A stretch of 64,000 bases of DNA from Bdellovibrionales bacterium (GTDB lineage: Bacteria; Bdellovibrionota; Bdellovibrionia; Bdellovibrionales; JAUICD01): positions 340,581 through 404,580 of the forward strand of contig OZ241865.1 in NCBI GenBank assembly GCA_965203275.1, written 5' to 3'. A model generated the notes under the pieces. The model did no database searches and had not been told where the DNA came from. It saw nothing but the letters and a program-made list of their open reading frames with translations. Positions 1,781 to 53,572 of the stretch are shown piece by piece (positions within the stretch are counted from its first letter, which is position 1; each line of letters opens with the position of its first letter). Both the position numbers and the translations under genes were made by a program.

Positions 1781-2390
1781 TCACTCAAAATGAGCCACAC
1801 CTCTGGTGTGTTTTTGGGCATTGCTCTGACAGCTATCGCTGTCTAAAAAGAGCAATGCCGCAAAAAACTGCTCATTTTGAGTAGGGAGGATCTCCTCGTT
1901 TCTTAACATCATGTTAAGGAAAAAGTTCCTTCTATTATTATCTTACTTTGCAAATCTATCAGGTCAAGCCCTTTTCAGAGAATGGAAAGGTCAATTTATT
2001 TTCACTAAAAGTAAACTGACCTCTGGTCACTTTTGGGCAGTTAGCCCGACGGCGGTAGCCGTCGGGCTAACTGCCCAAAAGTGACCAGAGGCATGATTTA
2101 TTTTGAGTGAATTAGAAGCATATCTTGTTTCCTTAACATAGTGTCAGAAGCAAGGAGATCCTTCTCTACTCAAAATGAACAAGCTTTTGAGGTAGCCAGC
2201 CTTTTACGACGGCGTGAGCCGTCGGGCTGGCTACCCAAAAGTGGCCAGAGGCCAGTTCATTTTGAGTGAGATGTTAAGGAAACAAGATATCTATTCCCGG
2301 TATCAGGCAATCAAGCATCCCGGGATCTGATGCCTGACTACCGGTTTGCCGGATCCCGGATTCCAGATCCCAGATCCCAGATCACGGGTC
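1781..2390. repeat. intergenic mosaic of palindromic repeat modules (block A)
   Basis: Three roughly 105-110-nt palindromic modules, e.g. 2002-2110 TCACTAAAAGTAAACTGACCTCTGGTCACTTTTGGGCAGTTAGCCCGACGGC-GGTA-GCCGTCGGGCTAACTGCCCAAAAGTGACCAGAGGC...TTTTGAGTGA. CTTAACAT..ATGTTAAGG modules and a CCGGATCCCGGAT-type GC islet (2330-2390) are also present. Confidence 0.9.
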
Positions 2391-2826
2391 CATACAAAAG
2401 GAAAGTATCCTAGCACCTAAACATCTATAAAAAATAAAAAATACATGATTTTTTTTAAGTTTTGTTTCAATATAATAATGCTATCTTTAATAACTAACAA
2501 ATTCTAAATTCAGGGCAATCAGGCAATCAAAGTATGTAAAAATTATATAAATGTAAACAGAGCGTCAATAAAAAAGTAAATAAATTAAAAAAATATCTTA
2601 ATTTTTACAAAAATTCTTGCATTTTTTTTGAAAATAGTGCATATAAGATAAAAAATAACAGTAAAAAGTTAAAAATTTGATTTCTTTTTTTAGCTTTAAT
2701 AAATTTAAATTTAGTAAACTTTAATAAAAATGTAAGCTTTAATAAAAATAAATGTTAGAAAAAACCACAATAAACAATAAAATTAATAAATATAACAATA
2801 ACAAAACAATAACAAAAGGAGGAATT

Positions 2827-4488
2827 ATGAAACATTTATTATACACTTTATCATTAACATTTATTTTTGGAAATTTTGCTCAAGCAGCAAATGTACCAAA
2901 AGTATTTTGCAGTCATTCTTACTGGCCAGCCACTGTATCAGATGTACAAGGTGTTTTAAATAGTCAGTCAGAAGCTGATTTGAATCAATCTTGTGGTGCA
3001 GAAGGTCATAGAGCCATTCACTTTGCATTAATGCAAAATGCTGACTTTGAAACCATTAAAACTCTTGTAACAAAAGGTGCTGATGTGACAATTAAAAATG
3101 CAGCTGGTGAAAATGCTGTTTACCTTGCTTTGCAACATCCATCTCAAGAGGTTTATCAATATGTCTTAAATGCTGCCACACAAACAAACGGATATCGCAC
3201 CGCTATTTTAGAGGCTGCCATTGAAGAAATCATGACAGAAGAGACGGCTCGATTGCATTCCTTTCAAAACATGCCATCTTTTAATGATCATGCAAACAAT
3301 GATAGCGAAAACTTTGATTTGTACATCCAGCAATTAGAAGATAGCATTGAAGAACTTAAAGAAAATGTTGAAACTTTTGAAGCAAGATTAGCTACAGAAC
3401 AAGTCGAACAAAATAAAAATGCATTACAAGACCGGATTAAATACAACAATAAATTATTAACGTATTATACACATTTAATAGAACATTATCAAAATGTAGC
3501 TCTACATCAACAGGAACATGGGCAAAAAGTAGCTGATTATTATACTCAATACTATAGCAATTATACACCTGATCCCTGGCACAGAAATGCTCCTGTCGGT
3601 GTTTATGTGTCTTTTGATGTAGGAACTGTTCTTAAAACCATGTTTGATTTGAATAATACTTCTGATGGTCTTCCTACAAATTGTGATACCTTCTTACCTC
3701 CTAGCTCTTTCTCATTACCTCTCACTCATACAAGTTGTATGAACTATGCAGATCGTTGGAAAACACCTTTTGAAACACAAGTGGGTGTGACAGCAGGTGT
3801 GATGTTAGGCTATGGATTTCAACCTTTCTCTACCGATAAAGTCACTCTCAGAGTTGAGGCAGAATATGCACGTCGTCAAATCAGTGGTAATAATACTTGG
3901 TCTTCTGCTGTTTTAGGGCCAAAAGATTCTGAGTTTGCCTTTACACATGAAAGCTTCTCAGAATTAAACACCAATCAGTACTTTGCAAATATTTATGCAG
4001 ATTTTCCTAAACTGTTGAGCAAATTAGGTGCAGGACTTCACAATCTAACACCTTACGTAGGATTTGGTTTTGGTAATCTGGATCCCAATATGGATTACAC
4101 TTCCGTCTGGTATCGGCATAAAGAAGGAGAGTCTCTCTCTCGTCAAGGCGTCAATCCTAACGCTGCAGGTACTATTTCTGTCGGAAACTTTAAATTTGAA
4201 GGAGATAATTCCCCTGCCACACAATGGATTTTTGGAGCAGACTACACTCTGACTAAAAGAATTAAACTAGGGCTTAGAGTACGTATGATGCAAATCCATC
4301 AAGAATTTACATCAAGTGATCATTATTGGCAGCTTTTAAGAAACCATCAATCAAGGACATCTCCTCACAACGGTCGTCCTATCACTTATAACACCAGTGT
4401 AGATGAATTAAACTTTTCTGATGTCACTATGCAGTTAAAAGTTTTCTTAGGTAAAAGGAGCAAAAAACCTACTCGTACCTCATTTTAA
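2827..4488 (+). CDS. secreted ankyrin-repeat / coiled-coil protein with a C-terminal outer-membrane beta-barrel-like domain
   Basis: AAAGGAGG SD before the ATG at 2827; the ORF is open from 2752. Signal peptide MKHLLYTLSLTFIFGNFAQA. ANK motif GHRAIHFALMQNADFETIKTLVTKGADVTIKNAAGENAVYLA. Glu/Gln-rich heptad region. The C-terminal third has alternating aromatic/Gly strands and ends in Phe (..TRTSF), as in OMPs. Confidence 0.6.
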   Translation: MKHLLYTLSLTFIFGNFAQAANVPKVFCSHSYWPATVSDVQGVLNSQSEADLNQSCGAEGHRAIHFALMQNADFETIKTLVTKGADVTIKNAAGENAVYLALQHPSQEVYQYVLNAATQTNGYRTAILEAAIEEIMTEETARLHSFQNMPSFNDHANNDSENFDLYIQQLEDSIEELKENVETFEARLATEQVEQNKNALQDRIKYNNKLLTYYTHLIEHYQNVALHQQEHGQKVADYYTQYYSNYTPDPWHRNAPVGVYVSFDVGTVLKTMFDLNNTSDGLPTNCDTFLPPSSFSLPLTHTSCMNYADRWKTPFETQVGVTAGVMLGYGFQPFSTDKVTLRVEAEYARRQISGNNTWSSAVLGPKDSEFAFTHESFSELNTNQYFANIYADFPKLLSKLGAGLHNLTPYVGFGFGNLDPNMDYTSVWYRHKEGESLSRQGVNPNAAGTISVGNFKFEGDNSPATQWIFGADYTLTKRIKLGLRVRMMQIHQEFTSSDHYWQLLRNHQSRTSPHNGRPITYNTSVDELNFSDVTMQLKVFLGKRSKKPTRTSF

Positions 4489-4504
4489 TCCATCGTATGG
4501 TTTG

Positions 4505-5503
4505 GTTCACTAAAAGTGAACGGACTTTTGAGGCAATGACCATTTTATCGACGGCTACCGCCGTCGTAAAAGGCTAGCTACCTCAAAAGCTTGTTCATTT
4601 TGAGTAGAGGAGGATCCTTTTATTCCTTTACAGCATGTTAAGGAAACAAGATATGTTTCTAAAATGTTTTTAAGGAGTACGGCTCTGCCTGCAATAAAAG
4701 AACTTTTTCCTTAACATTTCACTCAAAATGAACTGGCCTCTGGCCACTTTTGGGTAGCTAGCCCGACGGCTACCGCCGTCGTAAAAGGCTAGCTACCTCA
4801 AAAGCTTGTTCATTTTGAGTAGAGGAGGATCTTTTTATTCCTTTACAGCATGTTAAGGAAACAAGATATGTTTCTAAAATGTTTTTAAGGAGTACGGCTC
4901 TGCCTGCAATAAAAGAACTTTTTCCTTAACATTTCACTCAAAATGAACTGGCCTCTGGCCACTTTTGGGTAGCTAGCCCGACGGCTACCGCCGTCGTAAA
5001 AGGCTAGCTACCTCAAAAGCTTGTTCATTTTGAGTAGAGGAGGATCCTTTTATTCCTTTACAGCATGTTAAGGAAACAAGATATGTTTCTAAAATGTTTT
5101 TAAGGAGTACGGCTCTGCCTGCAATAAAAGAACTTTTTCCTTAACATGTGGTCAAGAGACGAAGAGATCCTCCTTACTAAAAGTGGTCAGGCTTTCTAGG
5201 TTGCCAGCTTTTGAGAAGGCGAATAGCCTTCGGCTGGCAACCAGAAAGTGACCAGAGGTCAGACCACTTTTAGTGAACCAAAAACATCTTGTTTCATTAA
5301 CATCGTGTTCTTCTGGGATCCGGGAACCGGGATCCGGCAACCCGGCATCAGAAAGAACTCTTTTTCCTTAACATGGTGTAAAAAAACGAGGAGATCCTCC
5401 CTACTCAAAATGAGCAGTTTTTTGCGGCATTGCTCTTTTTAGACAGCGTAAGCTGTCAGAGCAATGCCCAAAAACACACCAGAGGTGTGGCTCATTTTGA
5501 GTG
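4505..5503. repeat. intergenic palindromic-repeat mosaic (block B) with a 215-bp composite unit repeated about 3 times in tandem
   Basis: CCGTCGTAAAAGGCTAGCTACC recurs at 4561, 4776 and 4991, giving a 215-bp period. Palindromic modules, a CTTAACAT module and a GC islet at about 5300-5345 follow. Confidence 0.9.
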
Positions 5504-52448: not shown

Positions 52449-52895
52449 GCTCACTAAAAGTAAACTAGCCGCTGGCTACTTTTGGGTAGCCAGCCCGACG
52501 ACTCTCGTCGTCGATCAAAGGCTGGCTACCTCAAAAGTCCGTTTACTTTTAGTAGAAAGGATCCTTTCGTCTCTTAACACCATGTTAAGGAGTTTGTTTC
52601 ACTAAAAGTAAACCAACCTCTGGTTGCTTTTGGACATTGCTCTGACAGCTATCGCTGTCTAAAAAGAGCAATGTCTCAAAAGTCCGTTTACTTTTAGTAG
52701 AAAGGATACTTTCCTCTTTTAACTACATGTTAAGGAAACAATTCCTTCTTACACCTGCTTACCGGATCCCAGATCCCGGATAAACATCATGTTAAGGAAA
52801 CAAGGTGTTCGTTTCATCTTCCTTTTCCTTTTATTGCCGGACTGCCTGTCTACCGGATCCCGGATGAACACTATGTTAAGGAAAAAGTTCCTTCA
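52449..52895. repeat. intergenic palindromic-repeat mosaic (block J)
   Basis: Two palindromic modules plus GC islets at about 52765-52790 and 52845-52865. Confidence 0.9.
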
Positions 52896-53033
52896 TCAGA
52901 TATGTTTCATTTTGAAACATACTCATTAAGAATGATCTTTGATTAAGTAAGAAATATAATAAGAAATAAGAAATAGTTTGCTGGTGGATAAATTATAAAA
53001 AAAGGCTAAATACCTAGAAAACCCTTTATTGCT

Positions 53034-53074
53034 AGAGAGAGAGAGAGAGAGAGAGAGAGAGAGAGAGAGAGAGA
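53034..53074. repeat. (AG)n dinucleotide microsatellite, about 20 units
   Basis: An uninterrupted AGAGAG... run of 41 nt. Confidence 0.97.
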
Positions 53075-53204
53075 AATAAACCTTTCAGTGAAATTTGTTG
53101 TCATAAATAAACCACCTTTCACTATTATTATCGGCTAAAATACTTTTACCACTTTAATTTTATTTAAAATTTAGGCTTTTGTCTTACTTAAAAGCATGTC
53201 TTGT

Positions 53205-53572
53205 CTCACTAAAAATAAACCAGCCGTTTGCTTCACTAAAAGTAAACCAACCTCTGGTTGCTTTTTGGCGATGACCACGACGACTTTCGTCGTCGATAAA
53301 ATGGTCATCACCTCAAAAGTCCGTTTACTTTTAGTAGAAAGGATCCTCTCCTCTTTTAACACCATGTTAAGGAAAAAGAACTTCATTCGTAAACCCGCTT
53401 GCTCTTGAGGTAATAAAAGAAATTTTCCTTAACATAGTGTAAAGGAATAAAAGGATCCTCCCTACTCAAAATAAATAGATTTTCTAGGCAGTTAGCCTTT
53501 GATCGACGGCGGTAGCCGTCGGGCTAACTGCCATAAAACATGCCAGAGGCATGATTTATTTTGAGTGAAATG
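53205..53572. repeat. intergenic palindromic-repeat mosaic (block K)
   Basis: Three palindromic modules directly downstream of the giant gene. Confidence 0.9.

Follow-up and report, generated by a model that had tools for sequence, protein, structure and literature searches.

A dense family of intergenic repeats

The stretch of DNA considered here, hereafter the window, comprises 64,000 nucleotides of contig OZ241865.1 (positions 340,581 to 404,580 of the forward strand; assembly GCA_965203275.1) from an uncultured Bdellovibrionales bacterium. It has a G+C content of about 36% and encodes many ankyrin and TPR proteins as well as an Arf-like GTPase. Between its genes lie eleven blocks built from copies of an oriented, foldable repeat unit and from a few accessory modules, and this repeat family is the subject of the present report.

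A degenerate pattern covering the 5′ arm, the side hairpin and the inner stem of the unit (CACTMAAART-N5-10-CCTCTGG-N3-7-TTTYKGG) gave 28 matches at 24 distinct sites in the window, the expectation from 100 shuffles being 0.00. An nhmmer profile made from 35 aligned units gave 50 matches that cover 5,632 nt; about 30 of them are full length, and the others are partial or overlap on the opposite strand. The profile matches are confined to the eleven intergenic blocks and none falls within an open reading frame (ORF). Together the blocks amount to 8,397 nt, i.e., 13.1% of the window, so that the first-pass annotation of this DNA, made by a model from the letters alone, was right to report eleven repeat blocks occupying about one eighth of it. 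Plus and minus units occur in about equal numbers, and the clusters of all eleven blocks follow the order (+)n(−)m, with recurrent linker modules in between and the CACT ends outermost. The blocks occupy divergent, tandem and convergent gaps alike and show no enrichment at the 3′ ends of genes: by our own count, 10 of the 17 flanking gene ends are 5′ ends.

The family extends beyond this genome. The window is 99.8-99.9% identical to the ENA contig ERZ25068400 ctg22194_51x_c (2.58 Mb), and ERZ25070167 represents a second strain of the same species (syntenic, 99.1% identity across 10.9 kb). The top relatives of the malate dehydrogenase (Mdh) of the window are found in a few ENA and Logan contigs with 77-79% identity, a range which includes OZ253553.1 (‘MAG: Bdellovibrionales bacterium’, 2.94 Mb), ERZ26050468 and ERZ25067264; the next tier, at about 70-72%, consists of proteins labelled Bdellovibrionales, Bdellovibrionota or Pseudobdellovibrionaceae. 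The unit architecture is present in at least these three named genomes besides that of the window, and in all three solo single units are common, at many unrelated loci. An exact-pattern scan of one genome per species located units at 14 or more loci (at least) in OZ253553.1, and its matches in Cyanobacteria and Cyclobacteriaceae (loci L005 and L011) were dismissed as chance by the unit profile. Among the loci fetched via homologues of Mdh and of an Rpn protein described below, units were sparse in ERZ26050468, dense in ERZ25067264 and ERZ25070167, and not found in 13.6 kb of ERZ25070786. The sequence sampled from the window genome and its relatives amounts to about 325 kb, a small fraction of each genome. 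No unit matched plasmids (blastn) or IMG/VR viral contigs, and 38 pattern matches in metagenome contigs were all rejected as chance by the unit profile.

The first-pass annotation did not recognise the sequence, and neither did the databases. At the gathering score of Rfam 15 the sole match in the window is a tRNA-Val, and at E <= 5 only miRNA-type hairpins appear, with at most 46 bits against thresholds of 100. No description of the family was found in the literature on Bdellovibrionota symbionts or repeats. Most likely the family is neither a gene nor a known RNA. Blocks of this kind break assemblies, generate spurious ORFs, and directly adjoin promoters, a tRNA gene and a CRISPR array. A probable spurious ORF is that of 132 aa at 17833-18231, which consists wholly of repeat block and spacer and is gene-called in the ENA record (L018 8277-8675). 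If the window is representative, one short non-coding repeat family would take up more than a tenth of a genome of ~2.6 Mb, a load that, to our general knowledge, would be among the heaviest of such kind.

Architecture, fold and covariation of the unit

The unit has an orientation and measures about 145 nt, comprising a module A of ~105 nt and a module B of ~40 nt that ends in ATGTTAAGGAAA; a further tail often follows. Module A is a three-way junction formed by an outer stem, a 5′ side hairpin, and an inner stem with its apical hairpin. This junction is asymmetric: only the 5′ arm bears a side hairpin and only the 3′ arm bears bulges, one of them A-rich and the other of 1 nt, a one-sided placement that holds in every genome examined. 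From its 5′ end, the unit reads (Y)TG, 0-4 nt, CACT[A/C]AAA, a variable arm of 6-7 nt and the side hairpin NNNCC-TCT-GGNNN, and continues with TTT[T/C][G/T]GG, a variable stem of 8-10 bp, the apical hairpin and the A-rich bulge (TAAAA or ATCAAA). The 3′ half of module A consists of the complementary stem, CCT[C/A]RAAA with one extra base, a 3-nt spacer, the complementary arm and TTT[G/T]AGTA[G/A]. Module B carries, in this order, a purine-then-pyrimidine mini-hairpin, a T-rich run and TTAACA..ATGTTAAGGAAA, and its A.GTTA..G is invariant across 50 units.

This anatomy departs from the symmetric palindrome of 105-110 nt proposed in the first-pass annotation. The side hairpin that was thought to be mirrored within the same module (NNNCC-AGA-GGNNN and CCCAAAAGT) belongs to oppositely oriented units, the true 3′ arm being CCT[C/A]RAAA. 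The copy chosen there as a typical example, at 2002-2110, is in fact the sole atypical one, a symmetric chimera of two 5′ halves. The variants of outer arm, side hairpin and apical stem quoted there are all present.

The full unit (modules A and B) at 50591-50735, on the plus strand, matches positions 2-145 of the nhmmer profile with 127.9 bits and serves as the reference; its predicted single-stranded DNA fold has −49.3 kcal/mol (z = −12.9). The 5′ outer arm CACTAAAAGTGGTC (50594-50607), preceded by TTGCTT (the YTG junction), pairs with 50683-50697, and 7 of the 13 pairs of helices 1-2 show two-sided changes. It is followed by the side hairpin TGACC-TCT-GGTCA (50608-50620), confined to the 5′ arm, in which all five pairs of helix 3 covary and CC-TCT-GG is near-invariant. 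The 5′ strand of the inner stem (CTTTCTGG and CGATGACC, 50621-50636) forms helix 4, with two-sided changes at 12 of 16 pairs, and the apical hairpin ACGATGG-CTTTC-GCCATCGG (50637-50656) forms helix 5, in which 6 of 6 pairs covary. On the 3′ side only, the A-rich bulge TAAAAT (50657-50662) is kept in the alignments and folds of all genomes. The 3′ strand of the inner stem (GGTCATCGCC-T-AGAAAG, including the 1-nt bulge), the 3-nt spacer and the 3′ outer arm GACCACTTTTAGTAG extend over 50663-50697. Module B (50698-50735) contains the hairpin GAAGG-ATA-TCTTC, the T-rich run and TTAAC..ATGTTAAGGAAA, a motif whose sequence is better conserved than any other in the unit.

Covariation was assessed on 50 distinct units from four genomes under an RNAalifold consensus structure. 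Paired cells amount to 91.9%, compared with 80.1% in column shuffles and 35-50% with the partners slid. Two-sided changes are found at 33 of the 53 pairs (369 cells), a level that none of 500 shuffles reached. The compensatory covariation noticed in the first-pass annotation is hence real and extends across genomes. It affects every helix of module A; in helices 7-8, which belong to module B, changes are almost all one-sided, with one two-sided pair each, and the pairing is unsupported. With DNA parameters, ViennaRNA predicts the same three-way junction for units of the window, OZ253553.1 and ERZ26050468 (z of −6.4 to −13.3), with an equally good fold for the complementary strand.

The cells of module A comprise 1,850 Watson-Crick pairs, 30 G.T, 51 A.C and 104 other mismatches. 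Since G.T wobbles are not in excess on the unit strand, the pairing looks maintained at the DNA level. The missing wobble excess fits either the decay of perfectly paired master copies or pairing at the level of DNA, and would be unusual for a long-lived selected RNA. In addition, the helix types reassort, with four-gamete violations among outer arm, side hairpin and apical stem. Because the helices are nested, recombination at the A/T-rich joints can swap the inner cassette, both strands included, with the pairs intact.

Other modules of the blocks are a long AAGGAAA...TTTCCTT hairpin, tracts of heptamers (GGGATCC/CCGGCAA) and a GC-rich hairpin at about 50880-50990. The heptamer-like tracts are a regular component (2352-2391, 10141-10187, 17157-17209 and 41166-41361, among others), usually flanked on both sides by direct copies of ACAC.ATGTTAAGGA. 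The GC-rich hairpin is part of a module of ~220 nt (GGATGGGGCAACGGGAGGC...GCTCCCGTTGCCCCATCC) which lies at ~50809-51030 in the window and recurs in loci of the same species (L061 ~11400-11600, L063 ~10990-11200), its stem sequence varying on both arms between copies.

Junctions, turnover and neighbours of the blocks

The 5′ boundary of the unit is sharp, and YTG precedes most of the 50 units, including solo copies in foreign genomes; for instance, at one such junction in ERZ26050468 GATCCTCTG is followed across the boundary by CTTCCCT. The side-hairpin loop is a hot spot for the ends of truncated copies. Among the 43 short spacings between successive 5′ starts, 25 measure 26-27 nt. They reflect stacked 5′ fragments of this length, situated upstream of full units, each of which terminates in the side-hairpin loop (..CCTCTG) and is followed by a new TTTCACT; CCTCTG precedes the 5′ end in most stacked fragments of 26-28 nt. 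This hot spot was seen in the window, OZ253553.1, ERZ25067264 and ERZ25070167. A matching 3′ arm lies within 900 nt downstream for 11 of 26 fragments, compared with 6.2 ± 2.0 in permutations.

Larger rearrangements are also apparent. Units and linkers form tandem arrays with an identity of 98-99.8%; the periods measured in the window are 193, 215 and ~217 nt, and those in OZ253553.1 are 158, 224 and 257 nt. What distinguishes the duplicates L004 and L009, which are 96% identical, is a deletion or recombination event that took place between CCTMAAAA motifs belonging to two units. Between strains of 99% identity, the stretch 16573-17002 of block 4 is exchanged for a different module set in ERZ25070167. 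Block 10128-10850 shows 0 differences in 723 positions with respect to the same strain (L063 4532-5195), the flanks differing at 99 of 10,176 positions (0.97%), an identity that could reflect constraint, recent exchange or chance.

The composition of the individual blocks illustrates these features. Blocks 4, 9 and 10 are annotated on the plus strand and blocks 5 and 8 on the minus strand; the others hold units of both orientations. Block 1 (1781-2390), between the tRNA-Val gene (1700-1775, minus strand) and an ORF at 2752-4488, contains a plus unit (1780-1922), the symmetric chimera (2000-2111), a minus unit (2128-2270) and a heptamer tract (2352-2391). In block 2 (4505-5503), three plus units form a 215-nt tandem array at 4506-5076 (Tandem Repeats Finder (TRF) period 215, 2.8 copies, 99% matches), which is followed by minus units at 5136-5277 and 5363-5504. 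Block 3 (10128-10850) is composed of a heptamer tract, a plus unit (10213-10354), two 5′-truncated minus units (10403-10502, 10521-10632), a full minus unit (10650-10793) and two stacked 5′ fragments (10794-10850). Block 4 (16531-17350) has units or fragments at 16586-16627, 16630-16770, 16792-16885, 16925-17068 and 17236-17341, and a heptamer tract at 17157-17209.

The clearest nested stack is found in block 5 (17838-18352), with tandem 5′ ends at 18272-18297, 18298-18323 and 18324-18350 (26, 26 and 27 nt). The first of them is the 5′ end of a full unit (18153-18296) and the remaining two are truncated fragments, for which 3′ remainders with matching arms lie, in mirrored order, at 18024-18135 and 17903-18016. 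Block 6 (23500-24857) comprises three plus units in a 193-nt tandem array at 23611-24201 (TRF period 193, 3.1 copies, 98% matches), a minus unit (24190-24333), a unique spacer of 190 nt and a tail-to-tail pair (24519-24665, plus; 24714-24857, minus). Block 7 (28321-29130), between the Rpn-like gene and the CRISPR array, carries 5′ fragments at 28321-28423 and two tail-to-tail pairs, 28431-28572 (plus) with 28621-28767 (minus) and 28822-28964 (plus) with 28967-29108 (minus). Block 8 (41095-42219) has a long heptamer tract (41166-41361) and four minus units, arrayed with their heptamer tracts at intervals of ~217 nt; one of its units (41372-41556) harbours a reversed module-B fragment within the apical loop. 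The reference unit belongs to block 9 (50509-51130), together with an 82-nt 5′ fragment (50509-50586), heptamer tracts and the separate 110-nt GC-rich hairpin (~50880-50990), also present in L061 and L063. Block 10 (52449-52895) consists of plus units at 52451-52591 and 52598-52738 followed by heptamer and ATGTTAAGGAAA modules, and block 11 (53205-53572) of a 27-nt 5′ fragment and a tail-to-tail pair (53232-53375, plus; 53424-53569, minus) that was detected as an inverted repeat.

Block 7 adjoins a CRISPR array (29131-29881), which the first-pass annotation does not mention, with 13 copies of the 28-nt repeat CTTTCTACCGCCCACACACGGGCGTAAC and spacers of ~32 nt, two of which each occur three times in a row. 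The cas genes (29933-36235, minus strand) encode Cas2, Cas1, Cas3 (HD plus helicase, 838 aa), a Cas6-like protein and two unannotated proteins, one of which has a sub-threshold match to Cas7fv; the locus looks like a divergent type I-F variant. An orphan CRISPR repeat at 28790-28815 is parted from the array by the tail-to-tail pair of 284 nt (28822-29108), and the 48 nt before its end are duplicated ahead of the first array repeat, which indicates that the repeat family has rearranged the distal end of the array.

Eukaryote-like proteins, namely an Arf-family small GTPase, several ankyrin-repeat proteins and one TPR protein, are encoded at 24877-25461, 19557-21589, 22128-22550, 39714-40994 and 7959-8762, and their presence suggests a host-associated lifestyle for this Bdellovibrio-like lineage. 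Next to block 11, a 2,222-aa ORF (53583-60251, minus strand) is mostly made of ~33 tandem copies of a 153-nt (51-aa) repeat and has no convincing Pfam match.

Two genes of the window might at first sight be related to the spread of the units. An IS256-family insertion sequence (IS) at 36740-38143 carries a Transposase_mut gene (36776-38011, minus strand) between 26-bp imperfect inverted repeats (36740-36765, 38118-38143); it was rejected as a parent, its inverted repeats being unrelated to the units, and so was an IS30-like element of L009/L012, whose ends are also unrelated. The other gene encodes an Rpn/YhgA-like protein (Transposase_31; 27154-28284, minus strand). Genes of this type are multi-copy in the clade and their contexts vary (L061 8738-9781 and 10001-11083; L062 10001-10963; L021 3114-4301). 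In the window and in L061, reversed unit 5′ ends abut the start of the Rpn-like gene, and a conserved promoter-like region (TTGACAT..) begins directly after; this arrangement follows from the general rule that CACT ends face genes. As a candidate cognate enzyme Rpn/Transposase_31 was discarded, because an 80%-identical relative in L062 has no adjoining unit and L021 carries the gene but lacks units. Neither gene is convincingly linked to the units. The first-pass annotation had stated that the window contains no REP-associated tyrosine transposase (RAYT) or other cognate transposase. As for the former, no PF01797-type RAYT/Y1 gene was seen among the ORFs of the window or the genes called in the fetched loci; the latter needs to be qualified, since the IS256-family transposase and the Rpn gene are present, but neither is apparently cognate. 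A crude search for HUH..Y motifs in 389 ORFs of the 325 kb, a small fraction of each genome, found none.

Mode of spread and comparison with known systems

We consider it probable that the family is lineage-specific, non-autonomous repeat DNA, similar in kind to repetitive extragenic palindromic (REP) sequences and bacterial interspersed mosaic elements (BIMEs) or to miniature inverted-repeat transposable elements (MITEs), and selfish or at most secondarily useful. Of the two explanations offered in the first-pass annotation, propagating lineages of this kind are better supported, because of the stacked and nested copies, the tandem arrays, the reassorted helices and the block replacement between near-identical strains; selection on an RNA fold finds no support in the mismatch spectrum, and both strands fold equally well. 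The best-supported reading is that the family may spread and diversify in the manner proposed for REP/BIME elements. New copies would join next to (Y)CTG, and the preferred site of this kind may be the side-hairpin loop of the family itself, so that elements would accumulate within one another; the (+)n(−)m clusters with CACT ends outermost would result if copies nested into founder pairs arranged tail to tail. Helices could be shuffled by recombination at the conserved A/T-rich joints (CACTAAAA, TTTTGG, CCTCAAAA and TTTTAGTAG). The propagating form would be folded single-stranded DNA, recognised by a structure-specific enzyme whose gene lies elsewhere in the genome, which would explain why the pairing of the hairpin remains perfectly Watson-Crick. 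The best precedent for such an enzyme would be a nuclease of the HUH/Y1 type, TnpA-REP, which binds the hairpin, cleaves multiple short sites (CCT after CC, CT after C) that flank it on both sides or lie within linkers, and recombines BIMEs (PMC3333891). These activities were proposed to yield BIME diversification, insertion beside resident elements and rolling-circle-like tandem amplification (PMC3333891). We only infer the cleavage and joining after CTG, the single-stranded intermediate and the identity of the enzyme.

Several observations weigh against this reading. No cognate enzyme emerged when the window ORFs and the gene calls of the fetched loci (about 325 kb) were scanned with Pfam. 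REP is a small imperfect palindrome of 20-40 bp (PMC3733652), i.e., a simple hairpin, whereas the units are ~145 nt long, four to seven times longer, with a branched hairpin of ~105 nt. REP palindromes have an unpaired GTAG (or CGTC) tag at one end (PMC3733652), described as CTAC/GTAG elsewhere (PMC3333891), but no unpaired GTAG or CGTC tag is present 5′ of the unit stem. Nearly all units do have AGTAG or AGTAA behind the 3′ arm; its AGT is part of the stem, and on the GTAG strand its place is 3′ of the hairpin, whereas that of the REP tag is 5′. The identity of block 10128-10850 between strains could point to constraint or recent transfer rather than neutrality. As to the comparison of insertions between strains that the first-pass annotation had suggested, the most similar pair of strains, that of the window and ERZ25068400, showed no presence/absence differences of units over 30 kb. 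The sole within-block difference found between these two strains lies in a heptamer tract (10159-10164). No target-site duplication, precise excision footprint or clean empty/filled site was recovered. Moreover, the 3′ junctions of nested copies vary, with a recognisable remainder for a minority of the stacked fragments, and the stacks could arise without a dedicated enzyme, via template switching or illegitimate recombination at CTG/CACT microhomology.

Four other explanations were weighed. It is possible, but unlikely, that the unit represents a new type of mobile element carrying its own integration site: the invariant loop CC-TCTG would be nicked or joined on folded single-stranded DNA by a structure-specific enzyme, of the HUH type or other, new copies would enter resident copies at this loop, and recognition would use the asymmetric three-way junction as a scaffold by which strand and polarity are set. 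It seems rather more doubtful that the family is a classical MITE with terminal inverted repeats (TIRs), moved by a DDE transposase encoded elsewhere, the internal hairpins being passengers of long inverted repeats. The mobile unit would then be either the tail-to-tail doublet, with outer termini TG(N3)CACT...AGTG(N3)CA, or a single unit within a 12-22-bp inverted repeat, (GAAGGAACTTT)TTCCTTAACAT ... ATGTTAAGGAA(AAAGTTCCTTC). TG..CA termini are typical of several DDE families, the clusters almost always have their CACT ends outermost and their ATGTTAAGGAAA ends turned inwards towards one another, there are repeated doublets of 284-335 nt (28431-28767, 28822-29108, 53232-53569 and 24519-24857), and TTTCCTTAACAT precedes 9-10 of the 14 CACTCAAAAT-type units in the window. 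However, the solo units of OZ253553.1, ERZ26050468 and ERZ25067264 lack a 5′ TTTCCTTAACAT and solo copies showed no fixed-length target-site duplication; the 12-22-bp inverted repeat surrounds one subfamily only, in the window genome, and the doublet halves come from different subfamilies. The only complete IS of the window (IS256-like) and the IS30-like element of L009/L012 have unrelated ends, and simple TIR transposition leaves both the asymmetric three-way junction and the stacks of 26-27-nt 5′ fragments unexplained.

Structured RNA elements (terminators, mRNA-stabilising hairpins or protein-binding RNAs), co-transcribed with their neighbours and kept by selection on the RNA fold, are an improbable explanation. 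The very stable conserved fold with covariation speaks for such a role, as does the side hairpin with TTTTKGG, which is terminator-like on both strands (21 sites versus 5.1 expected at 23400-29200); REPs are in many cases assumed to function as RNA elements (PMC3733652), and the block at 10128-10850 is invariant between strains amid flanks that differ by ~1%. Nevertheless, there is no excess of G.U over A.C (30 versus 51) and few changes are one-sided, both strands fold alike, units occur in both orientations relative to genes, the blocks are not enriched downstream of genes, and Rfam gives no match. Stacked truncated fragments and tandem arrays would also be unexpected for a selected RNA. As for termination itself, the side hairpins resemble terminators, but the blocks show no preference for the 3′ ends of genes, and this role was rejected. 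Least probable, and quite remote in our estimation, is the passive spread of a few ancestral palindromes by slippage, template switching, unequal crossing-over and gene conversion, perhaps promoted by Rpn nucleases, with no dedicated transposition. The tandem arrays of 98-99.8% identity would fit such a process, the chimeras at 2000-2111 and in L063 look as if recombination had occurred, or the template had been switched, at the centre of the palindrome, there is microhomology between the loop (CTGGTCACT) and the 5′ junction (CTGTTTCACT), and Rpn/Transposase_31 genes are multi-copy in the clade. But solo copies with the same sharp, YTG-preceded 5′ boundary at unrelated loci of several genomes require dispersal and not local amplification alone, and the Rpn genes have no consistent physical link to the units.

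The REP, BIME and REPIN sequences of E. coli and Pseudomonas, with their RAYT (TnpA-REP) Y1 transposases, share a series of features with the units (PMC3333891, PMC3116915, PMC3733652). Both groups are strictly intergenic, highly repeated imperfect palindromes, arranged as mosaics of alternating-orientation clusters with short conserved motifs and as inverted doublets foldable into larger hairpins. Tandem amplification, variable linkers and stems kept by compensatory change are shared as well, and the published multi-site cleavage and strand exchange would give variants and arrays of the kind seen here. Besides the length and the position of the GTAG-like sequence, there are further differences. 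REPs are mostly found downstream of genes, between unidirectional or convergent ORFs (PMC3733652), whereas the present blocks are not enriched there; no RAYT was found in the 325 kb sampled, although a RAYT-associated family should have such a gene flanked by its repeats (a REPtron); and truncated copies of the units nest within the hairpin loop of the family itself. The REP load of E. coli is far below the 13% of the window occupied here.

With the IS200/IS605 elements and their miniature derivatives (PATEs), which are moved as single-stranded DNA, the units share an orientation, the lack of obligatory terminal inverted repeats and hairpins near the ends; bulges and asymmetries of the unit hairpin could dictate strand choice. 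A left end that regularly follows a short specific sequence with no target duplication may be a further likeness, as the sharp 5′ end comes after YTG in most units and no duplication was seen. In contrast to those elements, the whole unit is one large branched hairpin and not two small subterminal ones, the right end is not sharp, and the sampled sequence showed neither tnpA nor tnpB. The integron attC sites also conserve structure while their sequence varies, and conserved one-strand bulges are known to mark the reactive strand of such folded DNA sites. Unlike attC, the units have no GTTRRRY/RYYYAAC core sites (GTTAAGG does not fit), no cassette ORFs between them and no integrase among the ORFs scanned, and they occur in both orientations.

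The pneumococcal BOX (boxA-B-C), the Correia/NEMIS elements of Neisseria, the RPEs of Rickettsia and the enterobacterial ERIC were compared by description, not by sequence. They resemble the units in their size class of 100-170 nt, strong predicted structure, modularity, high copy number and restriction to a single lineage. Terminal inverted repeats together with target duplications characterise Correia elements and most MITEs, a combination not seen for the units, and RPEs insert in frame into genes, whereas no unit lies in an ORF. We know of no member of these families with a conserved asymmetric three-way junction or with 5′ fragments stacked at a hairpin loop. There is no evidence yet for a categorically new mechanism; what sets this mosaic family apart from the known systems is its very high density, its restriction to one lineage, the conserved asymmetric three-way junction and the self-nesting at its own hairpin loop. 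Its wealth of stem variants, its conserved asymmetries and the precise loop position at which it nests make it an unusually rich natural data set, from which the recognition, copying and shuffling of hairpin repeats could be studied and the enzyme behind them identified.

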